Below the pieces are notes generated by a model, which was not told where the DNA came from, made no database searches, and worked only from the letters and a program-made list of their open reading frames with translations. A stretch of DNA of 64,000 nt from Phormidesmis sp. (GTDB lineage: Bacteria; Cyanobacteriota; Cyanobacteriia; Leptolyngbyales; Leptolyngbyaceae): contig CBDFJR010000002.1 of assembly GCA_965248535.1 (NCBI GenBank), forward strand, positions 736,001 to 800,000, in the 5' to 3' direction. Within the stretch, counting starts at the first letter, position 1. Every line of letters begins with the position of its first letter. This document shows, in pieces, positions 8,155 through 44,800 of this stretch. Made by a program: the position numbers and the translations under genes.

Positions 8155-8363
8155 CTTGACGCGGGGTCGGCCTTTTTGGAGTTGTTTAGTCCACGATCGT
8201 GAGCAGATCAGAGAGTAGAGAAACAACTTCTTAAAGCTTATGTAATTTTACGGTAGAACATTATTTTGCTACCGTGAACTTCGATCGCAAAAATCAGTAG
8301 TGTGGGATCTTCTCATCTTTGATGAATACAAGAACTAGAGTTTTCCAGTCTTGTAGGAGTCTT

Positions 8364-23722: not shown

Positions 23723-24136
23723 TCATTCTAAAACTGGTTTTCTTAGAGACTTGATCTCTCCTCGCTTGGTTTTACGATCGAGCCGTCGTTTTTGAGAACC
23801 TCGACTGGGTTTAGTTGGTCTGCGAAGGCGGGGCACCACCACGGACTGTCTAATTAACGCTTGCAGTCGGCTTAACGCTTCCTCGCGGTTTTGCTCTTGG
23901 CTGCGGTGTTCTTGGGCTTTGATCACAATGACCCCATCTTGAGTAATGCGGTGATCGCTCAGGTTGAGCAGCGCTTGCTTATAGCGATCGGGCAGCGAAG
24001 ACTCCTGAATATCAAACCGTAAGTGAATCGCAGTAGAAACCTTATTGACGTTTTGACCGCCTGCACCCTGCGATCGGATTGCGGTCATCTCAATCTCGCT
24101 GAAAGGAATGGTGACGTGATTAGAAATTTGTAGCAT
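23723..24136 (-). CDS. arfB: Alternative ribosome rescue peptidyl-tRNA hydrolase
   Basis: RSQGAGGQNVNKV, RSQEQNREEAL and basic tail RRPTKPSRGSQKRRL. Confidence 0.95.
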   Translation of the reverse strand: MLQISNHVTIPFSEIEMTAIRSQGAGGQNVNKVSTAIHLRFDIQESSLPDRYKQALLNLSDHRITQDGVIVIKAQEHRSQEQNREEALSRLQALIRQSVVVPRLRRPTKPSRGSQKRRLDRKTKRGEIKSLRKPVLE

Positions 24137-24686
24137 ATCTTAATCATACAAAAAAGGAAACCGAACTCTAAATAGATGGCTGCGGGTTAGCGTTGATACT
24201 TTGCTGCATGGTTTCCTTCATAAATATCTAGAGTAAGCGGCTTGAGTCACTCCAGCGCTTATGTAAAAAAACTTATAATTTTGACAAAGGGTAATGCAGT
24301 AGGCTAGCTTTGTTAAGTGTTTTTCCGGTATGCAATTAGACTTTAAGCAAGATGAGTTAACTTCTTGAAGCTTAGATGCCTCCCAACGCTCCGACAACTT
24401 CCCTGCCCGACGCTTGAGTTTCTTTGATAAAGCAGTCTTAGTTTCTGTCAAAGTCACTATTTAAGTGTGTGCTTCGTGCTCTTCTATACAAGAGAGTGAA
24501 AGTAGCCGATCGGGTAATAGTTTCGCTGGTTTAGGTCGAGTTAATTTAACCGTTAATCACCCATTAGGCATCGCCTCGTCTTGCTTTGAGATAAGGCGAA
24601 CGTAGTCCGATGGCTTATTTTGTTGCCTCTAACGCCCCCTAGAGGTGGTTTCGTTGCCCGTGCTCTTCGCGTAAGGATAGAGAATC

Positions 24687-27600
24687 ATGGAATCCGCTCA
24701 ACTGAATTCTGACTTGTCACGATCGCCCCTACAACCCGCTTTTCCAACTCTTCAGTCAGATCTTGAACGTGCGGTTGGAAGCATCGGAGCAAATAAGGGG
24801 GCACCTCAGTCGCAGGAAACCCCCTTATTGGTCAGTCAGATTGCAGCGACTCCGGCGAGTGTCCAGCTTTTTGATTTAACCAGCAATACGGTGACATTCA
24901 CGGGCAGCAACGCCGCAAATGAACTGTACTTAAAGATTGATACCAGTCAACTTTTAGAGTTCAGTATTGATGGAAAAAATTTCTCCAAGCTCGAAGGACT
25001 GCATCTGTCAGCCTCCACAAAAATCACGGTTGATCTGGGTGCAGGCAATGATTCTCTGTTCTTAGATGCTTCTCTAACCAATGCCCTCAAGGGTTTGGGC
25101 GGTAAGCTGATCTTTGCAGGCGGCGATGGAAATGACACCCTGTTTGGGTCGAGTGCAGACACAGTTTGGAACATTACAGGCAACAATGCTGGGAATATTG
25201 ACAACGCGATCGAGTTCAGCGGCGTTGAAAATCTCACAGGGGCAGCCAACAACAAAGACACGTTTGTATTAGCTCCAGGAGGCAGCTTAAGCGGTTTAGT
25301 CGATGGTGGAGCCGGGGGGTTTGATAGCTTTGTAGCGCAGGGAGGCCAATACAATTCGCTGACCCTTGTCTGGACGGGTTCTGATTCAGGAAAGATTGTC
25401 CTTGATAATAACTCGATTCGCTATGCCGGGCTTGAGCCTATCAACATCAGTCCGGGAAGCACGCTACAAAATGTCACGATCGATCTAAGTCTTCTCGATG
25501 TGCAGAGCGTTGATCAAAGTGGAACTTCGGTTCTGTTTCCGTCGGTCGATCGGGCCATTCTTGAGGCAGACACGGCGGGCAAACTCAGGTTTTCAGGAAC
25601 GCACACCGTTTCAAATCTGATTGTCGATCAACCGTTTGAAGCCGCAATCTTCAACAATCCTAGCCAATCTCTAACGATTAAACTTGGGTTTGGGAATGAC
25701 CAACTCGATATTAAATCTCTAGATCCGGCTTTTGCTGCGGCTCTCAATATTCAAGGCGGCGATGGCAACGACACGGTGAACCTCACAGGCACCATCAATT
25801 TTGCTGCCCCCCTCACAATTGATGGCGAGAAGGGGAACGATACCGTCAATATTACGGGCAGTGTCACCCTACCCGGTCAAACTGCCAACATCACAGCGGA
25901 AACCATCAAGCTCGGCGGCACTCTGTCAACAAGTGCCACGACGAAGGCAGGCGATATTAAACTCAATGGCTATAACATCACCTTAGATGCGGGTGCCCAG
26001 CTTTTGGCAAAGGGCGCAACTGCCGGAAAAATTGATATTTCAGCGATCGACACCACCGCAATCTTTACACCTTTAATCAATTACGATAGCTCTAGCGTTG
26101 ACTTTACGATTAATAGCGGGGCCAAGATTGAGGGCGGAGATGTCACGATTCTAGCGACTGCTAATAGTCAACACATTCTCGACTCACAAACCATTGTTGA
26201 ACAAGGCCTCGACACCGTTGCCAAAGTCATTGAAGGACTGACCCAAATCGGTGCGGGTGCCTCGATTGCTAAGGCAACGGCCCATATCAACATCAATGCG
26301 GGTTCACAGATTAGTGCTAACAATTTCATTGCCTACGCCAGCACGATCGCTTATGCTTCGACGGCACCGATTACCTTCATGGTTGGCCCAGCGTTAGGCA
26401 TTGCGATCACTGACTCGACTGTTACAGTCGCGGGGACGGTGACTGCAACTGGAGATGCCACGATTCGATCGACCGCCGATCACACCTTGGATGTCGTATC
26501 TGACACGAGTGGACTTGCCGGAATTGCAGGTTCAATAGCGGTGAGCGTCGTCGATTCTAAAGCGATCGCTAACGTGACTGACCAAGCGAACTTAACGATC
26601 GGGGGCAATCTCTTTGTTCAGGGAGATACGGTCGATCGCAATCGCACCCTAGCCCGCTCAACGGCTGGCAAAGATGGCAACGTCGGTGTCGCGATTTCAG
26701 TCAACGTCGAGAACGGTGAAACTAGTGCTTTCTTAGATGGCACCGCTGCTGTAGCGGGCAATATTGTCGTCAATGCTACTCAGAAAAAAGAGTCACTTCC
26801 GGTCAAAAAACTCTTTATCTTGCCAGCGTTTGGCGACGGCATCTCCGCTAGCGCCGGGGTTGGCAGCAATTCAAAGGGCGACTTTTTAGACGACCAAAAA
26901 GCGGCGGCGATTTCTAAAGTCATCACTCCAATCAAAAACTATGCGACCAAGAAGTGGACTGAGTTTCGCAACAAGACCCCAGAGACGGCAGGCAACACCA
27001 ATGACCCCGGCATCGATGTAGCGGCAGCTTTTGCGATCGTGGTAGACAACAACACTGCAACCGCCCGCATTGGCGATGGCAACCCAACCGATCATGGGGG
27101 CAAAAAAGCTATTGTCACGGCTGACGGCACCATTAGCGTCACCGCCAAGATTGAGAATGTCCCCAACATTTCCGCCAGTTCCGCCGCTAAAAAGAACCCA
27201 GAGGCGACAGCCGAGAGCGGTGCCAATAAATTTGCAGGGTCGCTAGCGGTAGCGATCGGGGTTTATAACAATAATGCCCAAGCCTACATCAACTCTGATG
27301 CCGAAGTGGATGCCAAGAAAGCGCTCACTGTTCAAGCGCAGGCGCTCAATGACTATCAGCTAAAGTTTGGTGTCAATTTAGTCAGTCCTTTCTTGCAGCA
27401 GGCGACTTTTAGCACCGATGATGGCGCAAAACTGGTCAAAAATGGTGACATTGTTGAAGTGCGGGGCGGCCACGTTGGCAATGGCGACACAGGCACCTGG
27501 TATAAATACATCGGCGCGGTTCCTCAGAGGACGATCGACCTCAAAAATGAAGACTTTAGCAGCACAAACAACTGGGAAAGTCTCGGAAATGCGGTGGCCT

Positions 27601-30600
27601 ATATTAGTAAAAACTTTGTCGGCAATCTAACGGGTTATTTGAACAGTAACCTTGGCACTAAGAGCCTCGCTAACTCTTGGAGTCAAGCCACTGCTGAGGG
27701 CGATAAGCTATCCGTGGCGGGCGCTGTGACATTTTTAGATCTCCAGCACACTGCTGAAGCAACTATTAAAAATGGGGCCCGGATCAATCAAAATCGCACG
27801 GACTATTACACGGCTGGCACTCAAGCAGTGGTGGTTGACGCTAAAAGCATCAATGAAGGCGTTCATCTAGGCGGCAACCTCAAGCTACCGGGCATTAAGG
27901 GCGATATCACAGACTTCAAGTTCGATCCGCAGACTTCTTTTGCCCTCGGCTCAACAACAGCAGACGGAAAAGGAGGAAGCGGCGTTGGGTTCACCTTCTT
28001 GATGACTAGCTACAGCAACACGGTGACGGCGAAGATCGAAAACGGAGTTCGGCTCAAGGCAGACAGCCTCACGGTGAATGCAGAAACCTTGGGCATGAGC
28101 ATCACCGTCGGGGCATCAGGCGGAGAGTCTGATAACATCGCCTTTAATGGTGCGTTCTTGGTCAACCTCACGAACAATAAGACTCGCGCTCAAATTGACC
28201 AAGGCGCAATCATTAATGTGGGTGCTCTTGCCCTAACTAATCCCAATGCCCAAGGCAGTTCTGTGTGGGTCAACGCAACAGACACCACCTATGTGATTGA
28301 TGTTGCGGGCGGCGTTGCGCTCTCTGATCACGTTGGCATTGGTGCCACAGCCGCCATTAATATTATCAATCGTCAGACAGAGGCTGTGATTGGCAGCCAG
28401 GTTGGCGATAACTCTTTGGGGGTGCGTGGCTCGTTTACGGCGGGGGGCGCTGTTCTCGTCAATGCTAAAAATGATGGCTTTGTGGGTGCCTTTGCGGTGT
28501 CAGGGTCAAAAACCTCCAGCAATTCGGCAACCGCTCCCCAAGGGGCAACAGGGCTAAGAAAAAGTGATGGCAGCGGCTCGGTGGATGACCCTGGTAAGTT
28601 GCCCAACAACCAGAAGAACTTTGATTCTGTGATTGCAGAACTGAAGAACAATCCTAAGTTTCAGCAAGCCGCCAACGATACAAACGCGGTGGGTGCTAAC
28701 AAAGGCAAGGCAGGAATTTCGATTTCTGGTGCAGTTGCCCTGAATATTCTGGATGACAACGCTCGTGCCTATGTTCGGAACAGTGGCATTCTAACCGTCA
28801 ACGCTGGATCACTCGTTCTCTCTTCTGCCAACACTACTTCAGTCGGATCGCTGGCAGGTGCGGTAGCGATCGCGCTAGGCAACGGCAAAAATACGGCGGC
28901 TGGAATTGCTGGAGCAGTAGGTCTTAACTTTGTCACGGGCACCACAGATGCGTTTGTAGACGGTGCCACCTCCCTGAACACAAAGGGATTGACCCTAGAT
29001 GCGAAGCGGGCAGGCTATATCGTCTCACTGACCGCAGGTGTAGCAGGGGCAACGGGTAAAACGGGCATCGCCATTGGTGGCTCAGTCGGGGTAACGCGAA
29101 CTACCAACACGACTGAAACGGGACTGCGGAACACAACGGGTGTGGTCAGCGGTGCGGTTAGCCTGAATGCCAGTGACGACACAAATATCATTCTGGTTGC
29201 GGGTTCTGGAGCTTTTGGCGGCAAGGCAGGGGTTGGGGCGGCGGTTTCGTTTAGCAGTATTGAGAACAATGTCTTCTCAACCGTTTCAGGAGTGGCTAAC
29301 TTTAAACACACGGGCAACTTTGATGTCAAGGCGACTGCGGATGGGGACATCATTGCTGTGACGGGGGGAGCGGCGGTGTCTACAGGAGGCGGTGGAGATG
29401 GCGGGTTTGGGGCAGCCGGGACGCTTTCGGTTAACCTGATCAGCAGCACCGTTGAAGCCAAGATTCTCAATAGCACCACAACGATCGACTCGACGGGCAA
29501 TTTGACGCTGCTGGCAAAAGATAATTCTGCGATCTTTTCCTTTGCGGGTGCTTTTGGCGCAGGTAAAACGGCTGGAATCGGGGCGGCTCTGGCGCTAAAC
29601 TTCCTCAACAACAAAACCCGCGCCGTGATTGAAGCTTCGACGTTAAGAACAACGGGTGCCTTGAGCGCGATCGCGACCGAGACTGGCAAGGTGGTCACGG
29701 TTTCAGTCGGCGGTGCCGGGGCAGATAAATTTGCGGTGGCGGGGGGCATTGCCGTCAACAAATTGACCAACACGATCGAGGCTCGCGTTTCAGCAGGCAG
29801 TGACATTTTGGTAGGGGGCGCTGTTCTCTTGTCTGCCAAAGATGATGAGACCAGTGTGGCGATCGCTGGAGGCGGAGCAGGGTCTGGAAAAGCTGCCTTG
29901 GGCGCAAGTGTAGGTGCCAACCTGATCGAAAACACGACTATTGCTCAGATTGATGACGCTAAACTGATTTCCACAGGCTCCACGCTGGATGTGCTGGCTC
30001 AGGCAGATCAAGTTCTAGTAAGTGTGGGCATCGGCGGTGCGGGAGCCGGAAACTACGCTTTGGGCGGTTCGATTTCGGTGAATGAGATCAAAAATACCGT
30101 GCAGGCTTCTATCTCAGACAACAATGGGGCAGCCGGAGTTGCCACAACTGTTAGCGCAGCAGGGAATGTTAACCTGCGCGCCAGCGATAACTCGACCCTA
30201 GTTGTGGTAGCGGGGGCCGGGGCTGGAGCTGGTACGGCGGCAGTAGGGGCAGCGATCGCCACCGCCCAAGTGCAAAACACAGTCAAAGCGTTTATTGACG
30301 GCTCAAAGGTGACTTCAACCAATGGCGGCATCAATGTGCTGGCTGGGTTTGAACCACCACAAACGGCGGCTGATCTGACCGCGATCGGCATCGGCACTAG
30401 CGATGTGCCCTTACCGAAAACCAATGGTAAGCAGATTGTCAATGTCACCGTCGGTGGGGCGGGGGCGCAGACCTTTGCGGCGGGGGCAGCCATCTCGCTG
30501 AATTGGATTCGCAACGATGTAGAGGTTTACATCCGCAACGCAGACGTTAACGCGAACAGTGACGTGACGGTTGCGGCTAGCGATAACCCTGAAATTGACA

Positions 30601-33600
30601 GCGCAGCCGCCGGAGGTGCCGGGTCTGGAAATGTCGCCGTGGGTGCTGCCATTTCTTATAACTACATTGGTGGCGACCCTGGCAATCCGTCTCGCAGTGT
30701 TCCTAGGAATCCGGCGGCGGCGGATGTGGGCAAAGTCTTGGCCTTTATTGACAACTCAAACGTGGTTTCAGGCATCGGAAACGTCAATGTCCTGGCTACG
30801 TCTAATCCGCGCATTATTAACGCGACGGTAGGGGGTGCAGGGGCAGGCAGCGTTGCCGTGGGCGGCTCGATTTCGATTAACTTTATGCGAACGATCGTCG
30901 ATGCCGCGATTACAAACGTTAACGCTGGCAAATCAGTCAGAGCGAATGGTAGCGTTAACCTCAATGCTACAGCTACGCCACTGATGATCATTGTCGCAGG
31001 CAACGGAGCCGGAGCCGGAACCGTCGCCGCTACGATCGCGTCTGCTACTAACGATATGCGGAGCGACATCAAGGCGAGAATCGAAGGCTCAACGGTGGTC
31101 GCTACGAATGGGGGGGTGTTGGTCAACGCCGAGGTGAAGCGTCCCAGCACTCTGCCGGGTATCAATGTCAAACAAGCCTTAGATGCTCAAATTTGGGCGT
31201 TTAGCGTCAGTGGTGCCGGGGCGGGTACTGCCTCGATCGCGGGTTCCCTGTCCCTAAACTGGATTCGTAACTCAATCGATGCTCATATTTCTGGGGGGTC
31301 TATTGTTCAAGCCAACAATGGTGCGGTGACGGTGACGGCTGCCGATCGCTCAACCATTAACGCGATCGCCGGGACGGGCAGTGGATCGGGCAGCTTTTCC
31401 TTCGGCGGGTCGGTGGCTTATAACTATGTGGGTGGCGACCCAGACAGTCCGAGTTCTGCAACCAAAAACTTGATTCAAGCCTATGTGGATGCCTCTACGG
31501 TGACTGCAAAATCAGTGAAAGTGGACGCGGCTTCCACGTCGAACATTAACAATTTAGTGTTTGCAGGGTCGGGGGCCGGAGACTTTGCCTTAGCGGGGTC
31601 GATCGGACTCAACTTTATTCGCAAGACGGTAGATGCCCACATCAGTGGGGCTGGGGCTGTGACTGCTAGCGGTGATATTAATCTCAACGCGGCTGATAGC
31701 TCAACCATCAGCGTGCTTTCTGTGCAGGGGGCAGGGGCTGGCTATGTGGCGGGCGGGGTTGCCCTGGCTTACAACGATATCAGCAACACTGTCCAGTCCT
31801 ATATAGATGGGGGTCGGGTTACTTCTAGTGCAGGCAGCATTTTCTCGAATGCGACTTCTGCATCAACGATTAATTCCCTGGCGGCTGGCATTGCGGTAGC
31901 TGGGATTGCAGGTGTAGCGGGTTCTGCGGCGGCTAACCTAATCGCAAATACGGTTCAAAGCAGTATCAATAATGCTACCGTCACTGCTAACAACAATCTC
32001 TTCTTGCTGGCTGACTCTCGCAATACGATCTCTTCCATAGGCGGCACTTTGGCGGCGGGTGGTGTGGTCGGCATTGGGGGCACGGCTGTTGTCAACAAAA
32101 CAGACAACGTTACTAAAGCCTTCATCAGTGGCAACTCCAATGTGACGGCTAAGGGCAACGGAGCAGCGGCAGCGATTAAGACTTGGCTAGACAATCCAGA
32201 CGGCACTGAATCTACAGAAACAATTCAAGGTTTGGCGGTGATTGCCAACACTACCGAAACGATTAATGCAACGGCTGCAACTGCGGGTGTCGCTCCGCCC
32301 ACGGGAGTGGGAACCGTCGGCATTGGTGCCAATGTGGTCGTTAATTTGGTGAATGACACGACTGAAGCCACGATCGATAATTCCAACATCAACAGCGCGA
32401 TCGAGCTAGGCAAATTTGTCAAAGTCAAGGCCCATCAAGATACCAACATTGTTAACGCGGGTGGAGTGTTGGCAGTGGGTGATGTGGGTGTGGGGGCTGA
32501 TGTTCACACCGATGTGGTCACCAACAAAACCAGAGCTTACATTACTGACACAGTGCCTGGTAGCGATGCGACTACCCGCACGGCTGTCTATGGGGCTAGC
32601 GGAGTCGAGGTGAACGCTTTAACGCGAGAAAAAGTGCAAGCGATCGCGGTGGGCGCAGGCATCGGCACTTATGTAGGAGCGGCGGGGGCTGGCTCTGGGG
32701 TCAAGTTTGGCTCCACGACCGAGGCGTTTGTGAAAGAGTCGGCGATTACCACGGGTGGGGATCTAAAAGTCTTAGCCAACAATCGGGTCGGTCTAGACTT
32801 CTTTGTGGGGGCATTAGGCGGCAGCCTCGCCGTAGGGGCAGGTGGCTCCGTTGCTGTGGGTCTACTCAATAACACGACCAAAGCCTATCTAGAAGGTGCA
32901 GTGACCACGGCTGGCGGCTCTACTCAAGTTAAAGCCGATTCGGTTGAGAAAGTCACTACTCTGGTGGCGACAGCCGGGATAGGCGGCATTGTTGGAGTTG
33001 CAGGGGCTGTGGCTGTGGTTTCGACAGGTTCGACCACAACTGCTTACATTGGGTCAGCCTTTAAGGACGATAACAAACAAGTCTTCTCTCGCAACTCGAT
33101 CGTCGCGACAACCAGTGGCGATGTGCTTGTCCAAGCAAACAACACGACCAACATCAGCGATGGAGTCGGCAATGCCTCTATTGGAGGGGGTGTTGGCGTT
33201 AGCGCTTCGGTTGACGTGATCACCGTGAAGAACACCGTCGATGCTCATATTGGGGCAGGTTCACAGGTGACGGCAGGCGGCAGCGTTAAAGTGGAAGCGA
33301 TCGCCAATAGACAGATTGATTCCACCGTCGTCGCGTTTGGGCTGGGCGGCGGCGCGGCCATTACAGGAGCCGTCTCTGTGATCAATGTGGGTACGGGTCT
33401 TAGTAGTCAAGCTTCTTCCCAGGTTAGCGGTCTACAGTCTGCCTTAAATGGGGTGACTTCACCCAACGGCGGCATCAATGGTCTGAACACAAATTCGGGT
33501 GATACCACAGCCGCCAAACTCAAGGGGTCGGTTAACGATCCTAAGAGCAATGTTTACTTTACGGTCAGCACAGCAGCCGATCCCGTGACCACCAATACGA

Positions 33601-36600: not shown

Positions 36601-39600
36601 GCTTCTTAAATGCTCTCGCCAGTCAAGATATTTTTGTAGCTGAAGCGATCGCAGCCCTGAACGTTAATCAAGTCAAATCCAACTCTGGCAAGATTCGCCT
36701 GACGGTTAAAGATTCTCAGTCCACAGGCGAAGACCTAATCCTAAACGATACTGCCAAGATTACCGCCAGCGCTGGTTCGGTGACGCTGTTGGTGGGTGAC
36801 AATGTGCAAATGGCGCAGGGTGCCACGATCGAGGCAGCGCAGTCTGTCAGCATTCGAGGTGACTACACCAATGCAGATCTGGGTGTGGGCAGCGTGATCG
36901 ATCTGAGAGGCACGATCAAAGGCAGTTCGGCTGAAGTGATTGGGGAAGCAGACAATGATACGGTCATCATTACCAATGTCACAACAGGTACTCCAACTAC
37001 AGTGCAGACTCTGGGCGGTAATGACACCATTTATATTGGTAGCAATGCTACACCCACTGCAAATGTGAATGGTAACGTTAACCGGATTAATGCCCTCCTG
37101 CAAATTGACGGCGGTGCTGGCAATGACCAACTCAAGGTTGATGATTCAGGAGATGCTCAAGACAATACGGGCATCTTGACGAGCAATAAACTCATTGGTC
37201 TGGGCATGGGCAGTCCCAATCAAACGGATGTGAATTCAAGTTTGGGCATCGGCTACAGCAATTTAGAAACTCTGGATGTTGAGTTGGGATCTGGAAACGA
37301 CACCTTCACGATCGCCAGCACCCACACCGCAGCCACGATTGTCAACACAGCAGCCGGACGAGACACCGTAACTGTGCAAACGATCGCCGGAGCTACGTTA
37401 GTCAACACGGGCAGCGAGAACGACACGATTAATGTGGGCGGCATCGGTCAAACCGTCAATGGCATCTCGGCACTGCTGACCCTCCAAGGTGGAGCGGGCA
37501 GCGACATCATTAATGTGAACGACACCGGAGACACCCAAGCCAACACAGGGGTGTTAACCAATCGCCGTATTACAGGATTGGGCATGGGCAGCCCTGACCA
37601 AAAAGTTGTCAACGCTAGCTCAGGCATTGATTACGACGGTGCAGAAGTCTTGAACATTTCCCTGGGTTCGGCGGGCGACACGTTTACCGTGCAGAGCACT
37701 CACAGCGGCGCAACCACACTGAACAGCAATGCTGGATCAGACACGATCGCGGTGCAGTCAATTTCTGGGGCAACCACGGTCAATGCTGGGGCAGATGCCG
37801 ATAGCGTTACGGTTTCGATCACGACTCCTTCTCAAGGAACGCTAGTCGTAAATGGCGGCACAGGGGACGATACTCTCAATGCTTCGGCAGCCACCCTAGG
37901 AGTTGTGCTGAATGGGGATGACGGCAATGATAGAATTTCCGGCGGGTCAGGCAACGACCTGATCGGGGGCGGCACAGGCGACGATTTTATAGACGGCAAA
38001 GCTGGCAACGACGAAATCTATGGAGATTCGACCTTCCCATCGGAGGCAATCAACCCTGCCTATAGCGGCTTTACCTTCTCAGGTGACATTCTCACTGCCC
38101 CAGCCGGGTCTCGACCCAAAGCCACGCAGCAAGTTCTGCAAGGCAACGACACGATCGCGGGCGGCGCGGGTCGAGATGTTGTTTACGGCGAAGGTGGCAA
38201 CGACAACATTGTGGGCGGCAGCTTTACAGCCGGGGTGGCTGACGGCACTGACTTTATCTTTGGGGGAGCCGGAGACGATGTAATCGCGGGAGATAATGCC
38301 AGCATCGATCCGGTGAGTCGCACGATCGTTAATCTTGACACCACAAACGGGGGCGACGACTATATCTTTGGCGACACCGGAACGTTGACGTTCTCAGCCA
38401 CGGGTGAGGTGATTCGGGCTGCCAACAGTTCTGCGGTGGGGGATGGAAACGACACGATCGCGGGCGGCATTGGGAATGATGCGCTGTTTGGTGGCTCTGG
38501 CAATGACACCCTTTCTGGAAACCTGGGTAACGATACTATCCTCGGTGACAACGGGTTCATGACCTTTGCAGCCGGAAACCTGATTCACATTGAGACGACT
38601 GAGCCAGGGGTCGGGGGCAATGACACGATCGCAGGTGATGAAGGCAATGACTTGATTTTGGGTGGCTTTGGCAATGACAGCATTTCTGGTAATGCTGGGG
38701 ATGACATTGTGTTAGGCGATAACGGTTTGATTAACAATGTCATTAGCGGCAATAGTGTCGCGCTGGATGTAATTGTTACCACTAATCCCGCGATCGGGGG
38801 TGACGATACGATTTCAGGGGGCGCAGGCAATGACATTGTTCTAGGGGGCGCAGGCAATGACACGATCGCGGGCGGCTTGGGCGATGATGTGTTGATCGGG
38901 GATGGTGGACGCATCACGTTTACAGGCGGCAAGGTCAAACTGATTGAGACGATCGATCCGGGGATTGGGGGCGACGACACGATCGACGGCAATCAAAACA
39001 ACGATGTGATTTTAGGCGGCTTTGGTAATGACTTGTTGAATGGCGGAGAAGGCGACGATAAAATCTTGGGAGACAACGGTAAACTTGACTATGGGTTTGC
39101 AGGGGACAACACAGTTGGAGTCGCTAGCGATAATGATTTATCAACCCTAGACTTCATCACCACGACGAATCCTACGTTAGGCGGAAATGATGAGATCTTT
39201 GGTGGGTTGGGGAATGACCAGATTCTAGGCGGAACCGGGGCTGACACGATCTACGGAGATAACGGTCTGCAAGAGCTTGATGCCAATTGGAGTGTTGCCG
39301 GAAAAGGTGATTTCAACGGCGACGGCAAAACCGATATTTTCTGGCGCAACTCGGCGGATGGCAGCCTCCTTCTATGGCTGATGGATGGCGTGACCGTGCT
39401 AAAAAGTGCGCTGCTGCCCTATACGATCGGGGCAGACTGGACAGCCCAGTTGGGTGATTTGAACGGCGATGGCAAAACCGATTTGTTCTGGCGCAACACG
39501 AGTGGAGCGACGGCGGTTTGGCTCTTTAACGGCACCAAATTACTAGATTCAGCCATACTGCCGTTCAATGTCGGGGCAGACTGGACAGCCCAGTTGGGTG

Positions 39601-42600
39601 ATTTGAACGGCGATGGCAAAACCGATTTGTTCTGGCGCAACACGAGTGGAGCGACAGCGGTTTGGCTCTTTAACGGCACCAAATTACTAGATTCAGCCAT
39701 ACTGCCGTTCAATGTCGGCGCGGACTGGACAGCCCAGTTGGGTGATTTGAATGGCGATGGCAAAACCGATTTGTTCTGGCGCAACACGAGTGGAGCGACG
39801 GCGGTCTGGCTCTTTAACGGCACCAAATTACTGGACTCGGCCCTGCTGCCGTTCAATGTCGGCACGGACTGGACAGCCCAGTTGGGTGATTTGAATGGCG
39901 ATGGCAAAACCGATTTGTTCTGGCGCAACACGAGTGGAGCGACGGCGGTCTGGCTCTTTAACGGCACCAAATTACTGGACTCGGCCCTGCTGCCGTTCAA
40001 TGTCGGCACGGACTGGACAGCCCAGTTGGGTGATTTGAATGGCGATGGCAAAACCGATTTGTTCTGGCGCAACACGAGTGGAGCGACGGCGGTCTGGCTC
40101 TTTAACGGCACCAAATTACTGGACTCGGCCCTGCTGCCGTTCAATGTCGGCACGGACTGGACAGCCCAGTTGGGTGATTTGAATGGCGATGGCAAAACCG
40201 ATTTGTTCTGGCATCGTCGATCGGGCGAGTCAGCCGCCTGGTTACTAGATGGCAAGACGATAGTCCAAGCCGATTCTGTGCCCGGCAGTCGTGATTTGAC
40301 CAGTCCAGCCAATGACCTGATCTTGGGCGATCACGGCAAAATTTACGAAGCCCTGCCCAGCGATCGTAACTACTTCTCGATCGACACTGCCGCAACCGAT
40401 GGCGGCGGCAACGATATCATCTACGGCGATCAGGGTGACGACATCATTCTGGGACAACAGGGCGACGATCGCATCTACGGCGGCGCTGGTGAAGATGACA
40501 TCATCGGCGGTCACAACGTGATTGGAGGCGCTGACGGAAATGACTTTATAGACGGCGGCGATCAGGCAGACGTGATTCTCGGTGATAACGGATTGATCAC
40601 CCGTCGAGCGGCGGCAACTGGCGGCTGGCAGCACTACGCGGCTCCCTTTGGCGACACGATTCGCGATGTTGTGCGCTTTGACGATATTGACGGCATCGGC
40701 GGCAACGATACGCTTTTGGGCGGCGCAGGCGACGACATTCTGCACGGACAGCGGGGTAATGACACGATCGACGGCGGCGCTGGCGACGACGAACTCTATG
40801 GAGAACTCGGCAACGACACCCTGCGCGGCGGCGACGGACAAGACACCCTGCTCGGAGATGTGGGCATCGTCACTCGTGAGTTAAACCCCAATGGCAGCCC
40901 ACGACTGAATCAAAATGGCTCCTGGCATCGCAATGTCTTGTTGACCGATGTCGGACGGCTCACAGGCACCCTCAACAGCACCACGCCTCAAGCCGGGTTC
41001 CAGACTCCCGATCTGCTGCTGATCACCGGAGCCTATAACCCCGACGGCAGCAAAGTCACTACCGCTAACGGCTGGAACACGCCAACCTATCAGGTGACCC
41101 TGTTTGCTGACGGCAATGACACCCTCGATGGCGGCGCGGGTGATGATGCGCTGTTTGGTCAACGCGGCAATGACACCCTTCAAGGCGGCAGCGGCAATGA
41201 CTATCTCGAAGGCAACACGGGCAACGATCGCATTGATGGCGGCACAGGCGACGACTGGATCGTGGGCGACGATAGTCATAATCCAGTTCCCTTTAATACT
41301 GAATCGCCGATCGTCACGCGGGGCATTCACCTGATTCAGCAAGACCCCAGCCTCAATCTCAATCTAGGGACGTATGGCACGATCGTGATTCCCAGTTTGA
41401 CGATCGCGCCTCAAATCGTCTCTGATCTGTTGCCCTCGCTAACGCTGACGCAGACCCTCAATGCCAATACTTTACCGATCGTGCCCCTAGTCGGATCGCT
41501 GCGCGGTCGCGATGGCACCGAGTTTAGACCGTTTGCCTCGGTGATTCCTGATATTGTCAATCATTTATCTCTGCTGGCAGGCAATGACCAAATTGATGGC
41601 GGCGCAGGTCAAGACACGATTATTGGCGATAACTACATCAGCGCGGTGCCGCTGCGATCGGGCATTGCCTCTCTTGATCAATCCCTCGACTCCCTAACGC
41701 TCTCGCTCAATCAGCTAAATTATGATCTCCACGATCTAGAGCTTGCCCAAGCCAGCCGCAGCGGAGCCGCACCGCAAGAACTGACGATCGGCAGTGACAC
41801 GATCAACGGCGGTGATGATAACGACTTGATCATGGGCGACAACGGACAGTTTTTAGGCCCATTAACGGTTAAATCTCCTGCTAATGCGGCGGCGGTGAAT
41901 GCGAACTTGATAGATTTGCAGCAGATTATTAGCAACTTTAGCACCACTGTAAATAACGCGCTTGCGCCATTTATTGCAACGGGAGCAGGTGCCCAGCCTT
42001 ACACCCTAGCGATCGGGAACGACACAATTAACGGCAACGGCGGCGACGACAAAATTTTAGCCGACGATGTGCTGATCTTAAATCCTGTGCTGAAGACGCT
42101 GAACTATGAGCGCGGTAGCTTCTGGAACTACAATTTTGCTCAAACTCCCACCAAAGCAGGTCGCACCAACTTCCGCAACTTTGATTTAAAACTGGGGAAC
42201 GATGTTGTTAACGGAGGAGATGGTAACGATACGATCGTCGGTGACTATAGTAATCTGATTATGCCGATCGTGGCTCAGTCGCCTCAAACTTCTAGCGATC
42301 GCACTCAACTGCAACGCAGCTTAAACCTGCTTTCTGAAGACGCTAAGACCTTTCTGCGCGATCTCTATAATGCTCGCTATGGCATTGACTACAGCAAAGA
42401 TAATCAGTCCAACACGCTGATCGCAGGCAATGACACTCTCAACGGCGACGCGGGGGCAGACTTGATATCAGGCGACAACAGCACCTTTATGTTGCCGATC
42501 GTCAATCGTCAAATCGACACCAGTTTTGACCTGACTAAGGGTTATCTCGACAACAGCAACGACTCATATAACTTCTTTCACGCCTTGCCTCATCAAGCCG

Positions 42601-42959
42601 ATGTGATCTACCGCAAACCCGAACTCGGCTTAACGCGCCTAGCCGAAGACACGATCACGGGCGGAGAGAGCAACGACATTCTCTTTGGCAGTCGCAGCAG
42701 CGATCAACTGTCAGGTGGCGGCGGCGACGATTTCTTGTTTGGCGGCGGCGATGCAGACACCCTCGACGGCGGCACGGGCACAAACACGGTGCGCCGCAGC
42801 ACCAATCCTAGCCCGGCTGATTTGAGAGCGATCGAGGCTCCGATTCGGGCGGCGGTCAATCTGCTGACTCCTGGCTTGCAGCGCTATCTGGTGGAGATTG
42901 ACCAGGTGCGAGACACGCTTTCTCTAGACGGCCAACTCGATATTCGTTTTTCAGAATAA
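24687..42959 (+). CDS. Giant (6090 aa) extracellular adhesin/toxin-like protein: leukotoxin/haemagglutinin-like Gly/Ala beta-repeat stalk, RTX Ca-binding repeats, FG-GAP propeller
   Basis: Uninterrupted 18.3-kb ORF with AAGGA RBS; many GAG-xx-A-x-G-x-(S/A)-x-x-x-N repeats; many GGxGxDxL nonapeptides; GDLNGDGKTDLFWRN blades. Confidence 0.9.
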   Translation: MESAQLNSDLSRSPLQPAFPTLQSDLERAVGSIGANKGAPQSQETPLLVSQIAATPASVQLFDLTSNTVTFTGSNAANELYLKIDTSQLLEFSIDGKNFSKLEGLHLSASTKITVDLGAGNDSLFLDASLTNALKGLGGKLIFAGGDGNDTLFGSSADTVWNITGNNAGNIDNAIEFSGVENLTGAANNKDTFVLAPGGSLSGLVDGGAGGFDSFVAQGGQYNSLTLVWTGSDSGKIVLDNNSIRYAGLEPINISPGSTLQNVTIDLSLLDVQSVDQSGTSVLFPSVDRAILEADTAGKLRFSGTHTVSNLIVDQPFEAAIFNNPSQSLTIKLGFGNDQLDIKSLDPAFAAALNIQGGDGNDTVNLTGTINFAAPLTIDGEKGNDTVNITGSVTLPGQTANITAETIKLGGTLSTSATTKAGDIKLNGYNITLDAGAQLLAKGATAGKIDISAIDTTAIFTPLINYDSSSVDFTINSGAKIEGGDVTILATANSQHILDSQTIVEQGLDTVAKVIEGLTQIGAGASIAKATAHININAGSQISANNFIAYASTIAYASTAPITFMVGPALGIAITDSTVTVAGTVTATGDATIRSTADHTLDVVSDTSGLAGIAGSIAVSVVDSKAIANVTDQANLTIGGNLFVQGDTVDRNRTLARSTAGKDGNVGVAISVNVENGETSAFLDGTAAVAGNIVVNATQKKESLPVKKLFILPAFGDGISASAGVGSNSKGDFLDDQKAAAISKVITPIKNYATKKWTEFRNKTPETAGNTNDPGIDVAAAFAIVVDNNTATARIGDGNPTDHGGKKAIVTADGTISVTAKIENVPNISASSAAKKNPEATAESGANKFAGSLAVAIGVYNNNAQAYINSDAEVDAKKALTVQAQALNDYQLKFGVNLVSPFLQQATFSTDDGAKLVKNGDIVEVRGGHVGNGDTGTWYKYIGAVPQRTIDLKNEDFSSTNNWESLGNAVAYISKNFVGNLTGYLNSNLGTKSLANSWSQATAEGDKLSVAGAVTFLDLQHTAEATIKNGARINQNRTDYYTAGTQAVVVDAKSINEGVHLGGNLKLPGIKGDITDFKFDPQTSFALGSTTADGKGGSGVGFTFLMTSYSNTVTAKIENGVRLKADSLTVNAETLGMSITVGASGGESDNIAFNGAFLVNLTNNKTRAQIDQGAIINVGALALTNPNAQGSSVWVNATDTTYVIDVAGGVALSDHVGIGATAAINIINRQTEAVIGSQVGDNSLGVRGSFTAGGAVLVNAKNDGFVGAFAVSGSKTSSNSATAPQGATGLRKSDGSGSVDDPGKLPNNQKNFDSVIAELKNNPKFQQAANDTNAVGANKGKAGISISGAVALNILDDNARAYVRNSGILTVNAGSLVLSSANTTSVGSLAGAVAIALGNGKNTAAGIAGAVGLNFVTGTTDAFVDGATSLNTKGLTLDAKRAGYIVSLTAGVAGATGKTGIAIGGSVGVTRTTNTTETGLRNTTGVVSGAVSLNASDDTNIILVAGSGAFGGKAGVGAAVSFSSIENNVFSTVSGVANFKHTGNFDVKATADGDIIAVTGGAAVSTGGGGDGGFGAAGTLSVNLISSTVEAKILNSTTTIDSTGNLTLLAKDNSAIFSFAGAFGAGKTAGIGAALALNFLNNKTRAVIEASTLRTTGALSAIATETGKVVTVSVGGAGADKFAVAGGIAVNKLTNTIEARVSAGSDILVGGAVLLSAKDDETSVAIAGGGAGSGKAALGASVGANLIENTTIAQIDDAKLISTGSTLDVLAQADQVLVSVGIGGAGAGNYALGGSISVNEIKNTVQASISDNNGAAGVATTVSAAGNVNLRASDNSTLVVVAGAGAGAGTAAVGAAIATAQVQNTVKAFIDGSKVTSTNGGINVLAGFEPPQTAADLTAIGIGTSDVPLPKTNGKQIVNVTVGGAGAQTFAAGAAISLNWIRNDVEVYIRNADVNANSDVTVAASDNPEIDSAAAGGAGSGNVAVGAAISYNYIGGDPGNPSRSVPRNPAAADVGKVLAFIDNSNVVSGIGNVNVLATSNPRIINATVGGAGAGSVAVGGSISINFMRTIVDAAITNVNAGKSVRANGSVNLNATATPLMIIVAGNGAGAGTVAATIASATNDMRSDIKARIEGSTVVATNGGVLVNAEVKRPSTLPGINVKQALDAQIWAFSVSGAGAGTASIAGSLSLNWIRNSIDAHISGGSIVQANNGAVTVTAADRSTINAIAGTGSGSGSFSFGGSVAYNYVGGDPDSPSSATKNLIQAYVDASTVTAKSVKVDAASTSNINNLVFAGSGAGDFALAGSIGLNFIRKTVDAHISGAGAVTASGDINLNAADSSTISVLSVQGAGAGYVAGGVALAYNDISNTVQSYIDGGRVTSSAGSIFSNATSASTINSLAAGIAVAGIAGVAGSAAANLIANTVQSSINNATVTANNNLFLLADSRNTISSIGGTLAAGGVVGIGGTAVVNKTDNVTKAFISGNSNVTAKGNGAAAAIKTWLDNPDGTESTETIQGLAVIANTTETINATAATAGVAPPTGVGTVGIGANVVVNLVNDTTEATIDNSNINSAIELGKFVKVKAHQDTNIVNAGGVLAVGDVGVGADVHTDVVTNKTRAYITDTVPGSDATTRTAVYGASGVEVNALTREKVQAIAVGAGIGTYVGAAGAGSGVKFGSTTEAFVKESAITTGGDLKVLANNRVGLDFFVGALGGSLAVGAGGSVAVGLLNNTTKAYLEGAVTTAGGSTQVKADSVEKVTTLVATAGIGGIVGVAGAVAVVSTGSTTTAYIGSAFKDDNKQVFSRNSIVATTSGDVLVQANNTTNISDGVGNASIGGGVGVSASVDVITVKNTVDAHIGAGSQVTAGGSVKVEAIANRQIDSTVVAFGLGGGAAITGAVSVINVGTGLSSQASSQVSGLQSALNGVTSPNGGINGLNTNSGDTTAAKLKGSVNDPKSNVYFTVSTAADPVTTNTTAFIGNGASVTANGGVTVRADETLTVSDKDGGLGQLVGGVSIGFFGASAGGSVGIVNVGTTSQAYIDTNATVSAGGDIAVNAKFTSDLQSRAYGGSASLGVGLGAQVALITDNSTQLAYTANGSSLGNGTKILKAKTLTISADTTRTLATEAKGASIAGGLAVGAAIARSTIGGSTQAFLGDYTQVGSGTRSVNAVSLSATATKTAQANALAVAGALLGSGVAAQGDALIGTTTSASTGIGSQISTAGDVSLSAQSTNNANAQINGLAGAIVAAGLLNANAIVTPATTTASTGTQSTVDAGGNVKLNSSANNTLFTQARGGAGGLLTVSGQTATSRLEPAKTQSVIGAGGNVIAQGTLEIKSNSSADVQSDTSIQSIAGVAINQVKSVAKISSATEARIDSGATVQANKLDLKASDDRIFASAHSSSELTFGGGTNSDAESVADVNARAFAFLGANAKVTAPELISIVTFQNSVKTDATAKTAATAVQAALKSTANNNLISNADVVTEKGSTLETKSLFVQAIAPQFIPDGYIKNAETRATTVTELITQIVGETCSVVVTVLTLGFVDGDEVCEPVYETVRKILSSPVDSIFLGDKKIANSVTFNSDVKIIGGGTRTLTIDNQGNVTKADGVTFTNNPDEVIVNDILNQGVGNINIQSPSGIVTGQSTFTINNALDSVNIINDSNKRLTLNNIEVINKNQTTPPVVINAATNTFKYKIVMNANDSIVNVRNNNPANADITLRGHIENTLGVTKIYNKGGNVSSFGTLAYLETRELELRADTGSVGSLNNRIVTRLLVTGNDRKTRISDLFGNQGVFLDLTAFTRSNAPLAVELSQIGSGSDVDLKINDSLTTKILPVSAVTLNDGRVVFGLIEKLTNVGFDLRDGNTVTTINRSDVQKFEIQNRITNVQSDSAYTFKSATAAGNININAGTGGVVKTNLVFAGKTTSSAKDVTIATLAGNLISGTSDQLIAGRTINLTATNGTIGASDNDLKIDSSNSALGFLNALASQDIFVAEAIAALNVNQVKSNSGKIRLTVKDSQSTGEDLILNDTAKITASAGSVTLLVGDNVQMAQGATIEAAQSVSIRGDYTNADLGVGSVIDLRGTIKGSSAEVIGEADNDTVIITNVTTGTPTTVQTLGGNDTIYIGSNATPTANVNGNVNRINALLQIDGGAGNDQLKVDDSGDAQDNTGILTSNKLIGLGMGSPNQTDVNSSLGIGYSNLETLDVELGSGNDTFTIASTHTAATIVNTAAGRDTVTVQTIAGATLVNTGSENDTINVGGIGQTVNGISALLTLQGGAGSDIINVNDTGDTQANTGVLTNRRITGLGMGSPDQKVVNASSGIDYDGAEVLNISLGSAGDTFTVQSTHSGATTLNSNAGSDTIAVQSISGATTVNAGADADSVTVSITTPSQGTLVVNGGTGDDTLNASAATLGVVLNGDDGNDRISGGSGNDLIGGGTGDDFIDGKAGNDEIYGDSTFPSEAINPAYSGFTFSGDILTAPAGSRPKATQQVLQGNDTIAGGAGRDVVYGEGGNDNIVGGSFTAGVADGTDFIFGGAGDDVIAGDNASIDPVSRTIVNLDTTNGGDDYIFGDTGTLTFSATGEVIRAANSSAVGDGNDTIAGGIGNDALFGGSGNDTLSGNLGNDTILGDNGFMTFAAGNLIHIETTEPGVGGNDTIAGDEGNDLILGGFGNDSISGNAGDDIVLGDNGLINNVISGNSVALDVIVTTNPAIGGDDTISGGAGNDIVLGGAGNDTIAGGLGDDVLIGDGGRITFTGGKVKLIETIDPGIGGDDTIDGNQNNDVILGGFGNDLLNGGEGDDKILGDNGKLDYGFAGDNTVGVASDNDLSTLDFITTTNPTLGGNDEIFGGLGNDQILGGTGADTIYGDNGLQELDANWSVAGKGDFNGDGKTDIFWRNSADGSLLLWLMDGVTVLKSALLPYTIGADWTAQLGDLNGDGKTDLFWRNTSGATAVWLFNGTKLLDSAILPFNVGADWTAQLGDLNGDGKTDLFWRNTSGATAVWLFNGTKLLDSAILPFNVGADWTAQLGDLNGDGKTDLFWRNTSGATAVWLFNGTKLLDSALLPFNVGTDWTAQLGDLNGDGKTDLFWRNTSGATAVWLFNGTKLLDSALLPFNVGTDWTAQLGDLNGDGKTDLFWRNTSGATAVWLFNGTKLLDSALLPFNVGTDWTAQLGDLNGDGKTDLFWHRRSGESAAWLLDGKTIVQADSVPGSRDLTSPANDLILGDHGKIYEALPSDRNYFSIDTAATDGGGNDIIYGDQGDDIILGQQGDDRIYGGAGEDDIIGGHNVIGGADGNDFIDGGDQADVILGDNGLITRRAAATGGWQHYAAPFGDTIRDVVRFDDIDGIGGNDTLLGGAGDDILHGQRGNDTIDGGAGDDELYGELGNDTLRGGDGQDTLLGDVGIVTRELNPNGSPRLNQNGSWHRNVLLTDVGRLTGTLNSTTPQAGFQTPDLLLITGAYNPDGSKVTTANGWNTPTYQVTLFADGNDTLDGGAGDDALFGQRGNDTLQGGSGNDYLEGNTGNDRIDGGTGDDWIVGDDSHNPVPFNTESPIVTRGIHLIQQDPSLNLNLGTYGTIVIPSLTIAPQIVSDLLPSLTLTQTLNANTLPIVPLVGSLRGRDGTEFRPFASVIPDIVNHLSLLAGNDQIDGGAGQDTIIGDNYISAVPLRSGIASLDQSLDSLTLSLNQLNYDLHDLELAQASRSGAAPQELTIGSDTINGGDDNDLIMGDNGQFLGPLTVKSPANAAAVNANLIDLQQIISNFSTTVNNALAPFIATGAGAQPYTLAIGNDTINGNGGDDKILADDVLILNPVLKTLNYERGSFWNYNFAQTPTKAGRTNFRNFDLKLGNDVVNGGDGNDTIVGDYSNLIMPIVAQSPQTSSDRTQLQRSLNLLSEDAKTFLRDLYNARYGIDYSKDNQSNTLIAGNDTLNGDAGADLISGDNSTFMLPIVNRQIDTSFDLTKGYLDNSNDSYNFFHALPHQADVIYRKPELGLTRLAEDTITGGESNDILFGSRSSDQLSGGGGDDFLFGGGDADTLDGGTGTNTVRRSTNPSPADLRAIEAPIRAAVNLLTPGLQRYLVEIDQVRDTLSLDGQLDIRFSE
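39428..40212 (+). repeat. 144-bp (48-aa) near-identical tandem repeat, 5 full + 1 partial copy
   Basis: gactggacagcccagttgggtgatttg recurs at 39435, 39579, 39723, 39867, 40011 and 40155. Confidence 0.97.
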
Positions 42960-43013
42960 ACTGATTCCTTGAGTGCTCTATTGTCCCCATCTACTACCTG
43001 TGAGGAGTCTACT

Positions 43014-44198
43014 TTGAAACCCTATTGTCTTGGCTTAGTTATCGCATTGACCACAGTGGTGAGTTCTGATTTGGCGATCGCGGCTGAAAAACCGCAGGAC
43101 TCAGCGCCTAAAACCATTGCTCAAGTCACAGTGCAGGCTGCGCCATCCAGTGAACAAATTCTTCAACAAAAACTTCAGCAGTTAGAACAAAAACAACATC
43201 AGCTTGAGCAAGAAATTGAAGGATTGCGGCAGCAAATCACCGCGCCTAAACCCGTTCCGCCTGGCGTAGTTGTGCCTGTCGTGGTCGTGCCCGAAGACCG
43301 CCCCCAAAGCTGGGAAATCTCCACTCAAGTGCTGTTTCTCAAGCCCACCACCAGCAACCTGATGGATTTTGCGATCGTCGATCCAGGCACAGCGTTGGCT
43401 GTGAGCGGAGACTTAGCTAAAGTCGGCTACGATCGGGCCGCTGCCTTGCGCGTAGGGGTAACCTACCATCCGCCTCAAACCGCTTGGGCGATCTCAGCTA
43501 GCCACACTTTTTTAGACACCGACGGCAGCAACAGTGCAGTCAGACCGACCAACGGCGCGTTGTTTGCGACCTTTACCCATCCGTTTCAAAATGACTCGGC
43601 TGACACGGCATCGGCGCGATCGACGCTAGGCTATAACGCCACAGATATTGAGTTAGCCTACAATTTTCAAGTTGGCAAAAGCCTGGATATGCGAGTGTTT
43701 GGGGGGCTGCGGTTTTCAGATGTCAATCAAGAAATGACGGTCGATTATAACGGTCGCGACTTTAATCAGGGTCGAGCCATTGTTGAAAGCAGCTTTAGTG
43801 GCTTTGGGCCGCGACTGGGGGCTGAGGCAAAAATCAGGCTAGCCAGCGATTTGAGCCTGTTTGGTCGCGGAGCCGGAACCCTGCTGTTGGGGAGTTTATC
43901 GACTCGCTATGACGAAACCGATAATGCGGGTGCAGATGTCGTGGCTAGCCTTCGTCAAGACCGCAATCAGCAGATTGTACCGGGCATGGATCTAGCGATC
44001 GGGCTAAATTGGCAGCCCAAAGTCAGCCAGAGCACCAGTCTCAATTTCAGCATTGGCTATGAATATCAGCATTTGTTTAACGTGGCTGACTCGATTCGAT
44101 TTGTGAGTGCGGGCAGTCCGGGGGTGTTTACTGAGTCGCAAAACGATTTAAGCTTGCAGGGCTTTTTCCTGCGGCTTGGGTTATCGTCTCAGTTTTGA
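43014..44198 (+). CDS. Outer-membrane beta-barrel protein (Lpg1974/Legionella MOMP-like) with signal peptide and periplasmic coiled coil
   Basis: GAGGAG RBS before TTG 43014; signal peptide ending AIA; QKLQQLEQKQHQLEQEIEGLRQQI; LFLKP, FGGLRF, FSGFGPRLG, GYEYQ; ends QGFFLRLGLSSQF (terminal Phe). Confidence 0.75.
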   Translation: MKPYCLGLVIALTTVVSSDLAIAAEKPQDSAPKTIAQVTVQAAPSSEQILQQKLQQLEQKQHQLEQEIEGLRQQITAPKPVPPGVVVPVVVVPEDRPQSWEISTQVLFLKPTTSNLMDFAIVDPGTALAVSGDLAKVGYDRAAALRVGVTYHPPQTAWAISASHTFLDTDGSNSAVRPTNGALFATFTHPFQNDSADTASARSTLGYNATDIELAYNFQVGKSLDMRVFGGLRFSDVNQEMTVDYNGRDFNQGRAIVESSFSGFGPRLGAEAKIRLASDLSLFGRGAGTLLLGSLSTRYDETDNAGADVVASLRQDRNQQIVPGMDLAIGLNWQPKVSQSTSLNFSIGYEYQHLFNVADSIRFVSAGSPGVFTESQNDLSLQGFFLRLGLSSQF

Positions 44199-44239: not shown

Positions 44240-44800
44240 CTACGAGGTGAAGCGAAACTTGCCGATAATGGATTGAAAGTCCCAGCGAATCGGATCGGAT
44301 GGGTAGTCATAAAACACAGTCAGCACCATGATCGTCTGGCGATCGCGACTCGGAAACACCACGTCATCTCCACAGATCTTGGCGCACCACGGGTAAGCGA
44401 TCGCGGGCTGCCCCGCAAAGCTATAGCTTTTGAGGCTATCTTGACGATCGCTGAAATGAGAGGCGGTCTGTTGGCTGACCCACTCTGAGGCAGAGAGTTT
44501 TTGAGGGTTGCTAAACGCCTCAATCGCAATGCTGCCAGCCTGATCGGGTGCCTTGGGCTGAAGCCGCACCCCGCGACTATCTCCGGTCGCATCTAACCGA
44601 TAGCTAGACGGATAGTCAATTTTGAATTTATAACGCTGGCTCTGATAGGTTTGATAGCCGTTTGGCGCGGGTTGCGTCGCTCGTGCAGAACGGGTTGCGG
44701 TGCGGGCGATCGCCGCCCCACTGAAAGATAAAAGACTTAATAAAATCAAAGCTCCGGTCAAAAAACTGACTTGTCTAAACGGCAAAAATGAGGTTGTCAT
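44240..44800 (-). CDS. Secreted protein, PsbP/Mog1-like fold
   Basis: Signal peptide; YQTYQSQRYKFKIDYP start and FQSIIGKFRF end typical of PsbP-related domains. Confidence 0.55.
   Translation of the reverse strand: MTTSFLPFRQVSFLTGALILLSLLSFSGAAIARTATRSARATQPAPNGYQTYQSQRYKFKIDYPSSYRLDATGDSRGVRLQPKAPDQAGSIAIEAFSNPQKLSASEWVSQQTASHFSDRQDSLKSYSFAGQPAIAYPWCAKICGDDVVFPSRDRQTIMVLTVFYDYPSDPIRWDFQSIIGKFRFTS

Follow-up and report, generated by a model that had tools for sequence, protein, structure and literature searches.

In the genome of a Phormidesmis sp. (G000; 5.03 Mb, 99.8% complete), a gene for a giant RTX protein is followed by a gene for an outer-membrane beta-barrel of the Legionella MOMP/Lpg1974 family (PF05150). 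Our analysis points, at about even confidence, to a reading in which the two genes are inherited together, the giant likely leaves by type I secretion, and the barrel likely is a dedicated dock that holds the conserved C-terminal region of the giant. Both genes lie in a stretch of 64,000 nucleotides (the window; positions 736001-800000 of contig C2, CBDFJR010000002.1), which carries 57 GCGATCGC (HIP1) sites and cyanobacterial genes. Gene anatomy, co-occurrence and the presence of type I genes in G000 were observed directly. Giant and barrel each belong to known families and the obligate-looking pairing is the new part; searches of the open-access literature turned up no description of RTX proteins paired with PF05150 barrels.

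The first-pass annotation of this DNA had described a giant frame of 6,090 residues without a signal peptide and, within about 55 bp, a barrel gene on the same strand, and this was borne out. The frame at 24687-42959 is uninterrupted throughout and is the longest reading frame of the genome. Public contigs (two runs of one study) covered 30 of 30 bins of 24000-39200, possibly coming from the source sample and so not independent, and the only indels listed in them were a compensating pair near 31940; an artefactual giant frame was rejected. The barrel gene begins at a TTG (43014) that lies 54 bp past the stop codon of the giant and has GAGGAG six bases upstream. A longer start at 42969, given by the open reading frame finder, had no support from homologues, which start MK.Y.L at 43014. 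No terminator-like site was found between the two genes by consensus scan. Besides the giant, only one G000 frame has at least three RTX motifs, so the adjacency is not explained by an abundance of RTX genes.

Two alignments served as queries in other genomes, one of the barrel clade (A1) and one of the C-terminal 570 residues of the giant (A2). The A1 search strongly matched 19 of 90 genomes of the family and 15 of 401 of the class, 21 distinct genomes together; a match in G440 (E 5e-4) covered the coiled-coil stretch only and was taken out of the barrel count. Flanking sequence was collected for all 20 barrel genomes besides G000. A giant RTX frame with the same C-terminal region was adjacent or within ~10 kb in 20 of the 21 barrel-bearing cyanobacterial genomes, as the proposal that barrel homologues would be enriched beside giant exoproteins had anticipated. 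The giant precedes the barrel in 14 of these 20 genomes (including G000, and G422 with both genes frameshifted); the order is barrel, PpiC-like gene, giant in four, the genes diverge in one (G428), and in one (G427) they are ~10 kb apart on a closed chromosome. The reciprocal A2 search matched 20 of the 90 family and 14 of the 401 class genomes. Within the family, both elements were present in 18 genomes, the barrel only in one, the C-terminal region only in two and neither in 69 (Fisher p 9e-16); of the 14 class genomes matched by A2, none lacks the barrel. The two genomes with the C-terminal region only are fragmented assemblies in which it lies on short contigs (4.7 and 7.5 kb); one of the two copies is a 331-residue remnant. 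Six genera include carriers as well as non-carriers, and the association holds within them; of the 8 genomes in its genus, G000 alone carries the pair. Patristic distances on the barrel and C-terminal region trees largely agreed (r = 0.92, 19 genomes, G422 left out), a result that, without a species-tree control, speaks for co-descent only.

These neighbourhoods also bear on the supposition that unrelated genes have hitch-hiked, moved and lost as one block. Such a process would fit the patchy distribution, adjacent genes being co-transferred and co-deleted together. We consider it very unlikely: at 40-60% identity, both genes survive order reversal, divergent placement and, in the closed genome of G427, a 10-kb gap, and the flanking genes turn over completely while the pair stays. 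Besides the PpiC-like gene, flanking genes recur in a few related genomes at most, and a third gene is kept in at most 8 genomes. Nor does the linkage extend to PF05150 as a whole. In the class of a planctomycete carrier, a planctomycete-type barrel alignment matched 32 of 151 genomes (35 matches in all), and an RTX protein lay within ~10 kb in 1 of 20 neighbourhoods examined; the linkage to RTX proteins thus belongs to the cyanobacterial clade, and the hint of it in one planctomycete locus (L013) is not general. In these cyanobacteria, further RTX proteins are present where the barrel is not.

The partner gene encodes what the first-pass annotation had recognised, a signal-peptide-bearing, coiled-coil-containing barrel resembling Lpg1974/MOMP, and sequence (164 bits to PF05150) and fold place it in that family. 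The profile match scored 163.9 bits (cut-off 25.4) over profile positions 5-278 of 281. AlphaFold2 with a 31-sequence alignment gave a model with a mean predicted local distance difference test score (pLDDT) of 82.7, in which residues 46-76 are helical and ten long strands span 99-393. The helix has heptad leucines and a conservation of 0.68 per column. A fold search over 48,161 PDB representatives placed Legionella 'porin I' (9NH1) on top (Z 28.8, root-mean-square deviation 2.0, 254 residues aligned), followed by OmpT (Z 18.4, 8% identity) and OpcA (Z 17.5). A sequence search likewise gave 9NH1 as the only clear match (E 9e-15, three chains). The model thus predicts a narrow 10-stranded fold of the OmpT/OpcA class, and by analogy with the solved Legionella homologue 9NH1 the barrel is predicted to trimerise. 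Omptin proteases (OmpT/Pla) use conserved His-Asp and Asp-Asp catalytic residues; by column conservation in the barrel alignment, His is absent from the invariant and 90%-conserved columns. Named homologues come from Leptolyngbya, Plectolyngbya, Romeriopsis and Thainema. This anatomy would fit a scaffold, a receptor or a small pore rather than a protein translocator.

On the side of the giant, the C-terminal 570 residues are the part that stays constant across pairs, while the N-terminal halves are swapped. Identity in this region is 40-55% among 20 loci (mean column identity 57%). Its model (pLDDT 73.5) shows an RTX beta-roll with helical inserts at region residues 141-170, 214-244, 349-375 and 523-557; the helices are amphipathic, not transmembrane. 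The inserts had no Pfam or NCBIfam match beyond RTX repeats, and a sequence search with the region matched RTX repeats alone. The fold search returned generic beta-solenoids only (best Z 12.2, root-mean-square deviation 8.8) and does not imply a new fold. Judging from the model, residues 5533-5621 of the giant are a candidate partner-binding segment. On the barrel, the five predicted outer loops of the 19 partnered proteins equal the strands in conservation (0.51-0.61, compared with 0.41-0.60). P0052, a barrel of the partnerless type that is 95-97% identical to that of G412, retains the strands (0.38-0.57) but has lost the match in the loops (0.25-0.31).

The barrel could also assist the giant without binding it, as a peptidoglycan-tethered brace of the envelope or as an accessory ring at the TolC exit, comparable to the MOMP trimers at Dot/Icm. 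In Legionella, proteins of the family are attached to peptidoglycan (PMC11841132) and array around a secretion machine (PMC12501162), and conservation of the periplasmic coiled coil would suit either role. The barrel nevertheless tracks one specific C-terminal region, other RTX proteins of these cyanobacteria doing without it, and its predicted outer loops are its best-conserved parts. We regard the brace or ring as doubtful, with a minor share of the probability.

Several points weigh against docking. Since the genomes are kin, the co-occurrence (including the Fisher p) and the tree match overstate independence, and co-inheritance alone would yield matching trees. A1 and A2 were built partly from the same loci they later counted; scored candidates numbered 15-18 per genome in the family and 3-4 in the class, so that weak copies could be missed. 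The contrast in loop conservation comes from one orphan lineage, with segments picked after the alignment had been viewed. Moreover, planctomycete barrels without an RTX neighbour retain similar loop motifs (by consensus), and loop conservation may therefore be ancestral and not partner-specific. Finally, the G000 giant lacks both the DUF4347 start and the PpiC-like neighbour seen in relatives.

Regarding export, the type I genes of G000 all map outside the window: HlyB at C2:396240 (TIGR01846, over cut-off), HlyD at C5:1677681 and C2:828361 (TIGR01843, over cut-off) and TolC at C5:1620992 (PF02321, over cut-off). HlyB was over the cut-off in all 5 further genomes checked. The remark that the window holds no HlyB, HlyD, TolC or TpsB gene was correct, with none among the frames scanned or read; because the genome-wide matches lie elsewhere, this absence says nothing about the export route. 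A PpiC-like gene stands directly beside the giant in 7 of the 20 paired loci (G437, G438, G439, G446, G448, G464 and G589), and the four tested share 37-41% identity with the PpiC-like gene that directly precedes hlyB in G000; the remnant in G447 is followed by HlyD-, PpiC- and HlyB-like genes. RTX proteins have an uncleaved C-terminal signal of ~60 residues for type I secretion, and rtx and secretion genes mostly share one locus (PMC3034196), which is not so for the G000 giant. Its layout is that of a canonical RTX protein with a C-terminal tail and without a two-partner secretion (TPS) domain. No hydrophobic leader was found at its N-terminus by a hydropathy check; the best 11-residue value in the first 60 residues was 1.37, compared with 2.59 in the first 30 residues of the barrel. 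The giant thus probably leaves the cell through an ordinary type I pump (HlyB-HlyD-TolC) whose genes lie elsewhere.

The leukotoxin-like repeats of the giant had been taken to imply two-partner secretion, an implication that is not binding: only three of the giant frames compared share the LktA half, and LktA-type repeats in a Chlorobium giant are flanked by type I components (bioRxiv 10.64898/2026.03.19.712371). In common with two-partner systems (TpsA/TpsB; Fusobacterium LktA repeats), the giant has LktA_tand_53 repeats, here in its N-terminal half, and its gene lies beside that of an outer-membrane barrel. Unlike TpsA/TpsB, it has no Sec signal peptide or TPS domain (PF05860 not found by Pfam in residues 1-3000 at E 0.01, or in residues 1-500), and its partner matches PF05150, not PF03865, with 10 strands and no Omp85/POTRA part. 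Two-partner secretion was therefore rejected. The two TpsB genes of G000 (PF03865) are on contig C5, not on the contig of the giant.

The first-pass annotation had proposed a pair for translocation or surface anchoring. The dedicated pair and the anchoring gain indirect support because 20 of 21 barrel genomes carry a matching giant, whereas translocation is disfavoured by the type I set, the RTX layout and the 10 strands. A new secretion route with the barrel as outer-membrane translocator would account for the tight one-to-one linkage, with co-transcription likely from gene order in 14 of 20 genomes, and the order of coiled coil and barrel resembles that of the FapF amyloid exporter. FapF has a periplasmic N-terminal coiled coil before a 12-stranded gated barrel and a Sec-exported cargo. 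The layout is shared, but the fold match is weak (5O65, Z 9.0, rank 30) and the model has 10 strands, so membership in the FapF family was rejected. The barrel moreover lacks a POTRA domain, the giant lacks the Sec signal needed for entry into the periplasm and ends in a canonical RTX C-terminus, and HlyB is found in G000 and in the further genomes checked. We hold the translocator to be the least probable of the readings considered, and highly improbable.

Docking has a closer precedent in PorP/SprF-like proteins, outer-membrane barrels that bind a cognate giant adhesin (SprB) after its secretion and are its proposed surface anchor (PMC9143113). PorP/SprF with cargo bearing a type B C-terminal domain (SprF-SprB, PorP-PG1035) is the closest working analogy to the giant and barrel. 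It differs in phylum, in using the type IX secretion system after Sec, in cargo signal and in barrel family; neither a type B C-terminal domain nor a PorP-like family was matched by Pfam or NCBIfam on giant or barrel, and the relation is one of analogy only. PorP-like barrels are 14-stranded, and 10 strands are predicted here. By this analogy the barrel is likely a surface docking post rather than an exit pore. The giant would leave the cell C-terminus first through the type I system, calcium would fold its RTX rolls outside, the barrel loops would capture the helix-bearing C-terminal roll on the same cell, and possibly on sibling cells too, and the variable N-terminal stalk would be displayed as an adhesin or as a sheath or mat fibril. 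More specifically, and tentatively, at slightly less than even confidence, we propose a portable two-gene 'socket and plug', a counterpart of SprF-SprB in which a cognate 10-stranded MOMP-family barrel captures a helix-studded RTX C-terminus after type I export and thereby holds stalks of 3,000-7,600 residues, possibly for self-recognition of filaments.

Alternatively, the barrel may not anchor the giant on the producer cell at all but receive it on neighbouring cells, for self or kin recognition or to bundle filaments, or it may form a small pore for a substance that the giant binds or releases. The pair is patchy among close kin, as in the genus of G000 (1 of 8), and most homologous giants start with DUF4347, which we take to be a putative peptidase-like domain and which could release them. 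Lpg1974 forms pores in bilayers (PMC10967727, citing Younas 2018). The G000 giant, however, contains no enzyme domain by Pfam and NCBIfam scans, and the solved 10-stranded chlamydial MOMP trimer is reported to be non-permeable (PMC13254160). We judge this reading unlikely.

Docking by a cognate barrel would set the pair apart from known relatives of either protein. The 9NH1 structure shows a MOMP of 10 strands (likely Lpg2961); as an accessory part, its trimers encircle Dot/Icm and touch Dis1 helices (PMC12501162). The barrel shares with the Legionella MOMP family the PF05150 hidden Markov model (164 bits) and the 10-stranded fold, the Legionella member being a trimeric accessory of a secretion machine; it differs in its added N-terminal coiled coil and in being tied genetically to the giant. 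The locus showed no link to Dot/Icm, though no search was aimed at one. Barrels of 10 strands are classed as OmpT-like adhesins and proteases, which owe their specificity to their extracellular segments (PMC13254160). LapA/RtxA-type adhesins and cyanobacterial SwmA, oscillin and Sll1951 are secreted by type I systems and resemble the giant in their RTX repeats followed by an uncleaved tail of ~60 residues, in the lack of a signal peptide and in the giant repeat stalk (PMC3034196). SwmA is anchored by calcium bridging (PMC3034196). Unlike the LapA type, the giant has no matched N-terminal retention module: NCBIfam gave only NF012206 in residues 1-3000. NCBIfam presumably holds a model of that module. 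LapA-type anchoring works by retention in TolC, and neither this nor the calcium bridging of SwmA uses a dedicated barrel, as the pair here would. RTX proteins are abundant in cyanobacteria and their function is mostly elusive (PMC3034196). The locus offers a two-gene candidate for a dedicated anchor of giant RTX proteins on cyanobacterial cells. If this holds, it would be the first partner-specific role for PF05150 barrels outside Legionella, and if binding holds, the 570-residue region and the barrel could become a modular surface-display tool for cyanobacteria.

Table 1. Features of the giant and barrel genes (coordinates in the window; residues numbered in the respective protein unless stated).
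Feature	Coordinates	Strand	Remarks
Giant exoprotein gene	24687..42959	+	6,090 residues; lacks a signal peptide and, in contrast to most homologues, DUF4347
Variable N-terminal half	24687..33893	+	Gly/Ala/Val/Ser-rich; LktA_tand_53 (NF012206) repeats
Main RTX (GGxGxD) block	37110..39251	+	residues 4142-4855
Seven FG-GAP repeats	39306..40304	+	~48 residues each; residues 4874-5206
Conserved C-terminal 570 residues	41247..42956	+	RTX beta-roll with long amphipathic helical inserts; presence tracks barrel
Conserved segment, region residues 13-101	41283..41549	+	residues 5533-5621; monomer model pLDDT mostly <50
Last 60 residues past final RTX repeat	42777..42956	+	helix-helix-tail; type I secretion signal predicted by position
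Spacer between giant and barrel	42960..43013	+	54 bp; ribosome-binding-site-like GAGGAG at 43002-43007; no terminator-like match
PF05150 (Legionella MOMP/Lpg1974 family) outer-membrane protein gene	43014..44198	+	394 residues; single copy in genome
Coiled-coil helix	43149..43241	+	residues 46-76; conserved; predicted periplasmic; between two variable linkers
Predicted 10-stranded beta-barrel	43308..44195	+	residues 99-394; five conserved predicted-extracellular loops; Phe-ended

The N-terminal half of the giant varies among homologues, whose complete frames range from 3,364 to 7,612 residues. NF012206 matched 23 stretches in residues 1-3000, where it was the sole NCBIfam match and Pfam gave none (E 0.01), and one more at residues 3017-3069. 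Among the giant frames compared, the LktA-repeat half is common only to those of G437 and G443 and the 7,612-residue giant of G464. The whole G000 giant has 30 strict GGxGxD motifs, and PF00353 matched it in 14 stretches (282 bits); its FG-GAP repeats likely form a beta-propeller. A DUF4347-type motif opens 16 of the 17 homologous giants whose N-terminal sequence was covered; Pfam found the domain in four of four homologues tested, including the one missed by the motif, and not in the G000 giant. A second giant in G000 (C5:749298-760554, minus strand) has a DUF4347 start and an FG-GAP-like end and is seemingly split into overlapping frames of 902 and 2,893 residues. G464 (L080/L081/L047) encodes tandem giants of 7,612 and 4,922 residues with the same C-terminal region, a PpiC-like gene between them and one barrel gene. 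In G422 (L057), giant and barrel are each broken into several frames, by pseudogenisation or assembly error.

A scan of 401 genomes of the phylum with the Pfam model had returned only G000 and two weak matches, and the far more sensitive A1 replaced it. The weak matches, G247 and G046, had no match to A1 and were dropped. In G247 (L059/L073) the weak PF05150 match has on one side a 773-residue protein bearing RTX repeats and on the other a series of genes resembling filamentous haemagglutinin, together with a TpsB-like gene. Pattern scans gave five loci in genome contigs (among them L012 in G475 and L014 in G412) and two in metagenomes. Six proteins (P0053-P0057 and P0061; ~760-1,100 residues) each contain three stretches that match the profile and seemingly consist of tandem PF05150-type barrels within a single chain. 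In 7 of the 20 planctomycete loci (L087, L088, L089, L092, L094, L101 and L102), PF05150-type barrels lie near frames of 1,070-1,550 residues that have nine CxxCH motifs and, in the one scanned, LVIVD repeats; some of these loci contain further multi-CxxCH proteins, and the arrangement is possibly a porin-multiheme cytochrome module.

Around the pair in G000, a signal-peptide-like hypothetical gene (window 44240-44800, minus strand) converges on the barrel, and a second small outer-membrane-barrel-like gene with a weak PF24653 match lies at 48906-49916 (minus strand); neither recurs in related loci. About 23-30 kb past the end of the window, C2:822591-829698 encodes a small RTX protein, a PpiC-like protein, an HlyB-like protein apparently split over two overlapping frames, and HlyD. 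Upstream of the giant, at 8319-11534 (plus strand), a 1,071-residue protein has DUF4347, choice-of-anchor Y and FG-GAP parts and no RTX repeats; its N-terminal leader has the short motif DL.RSPLQ in common with the N-terminus of the giant, which itself lacks DUF4347.

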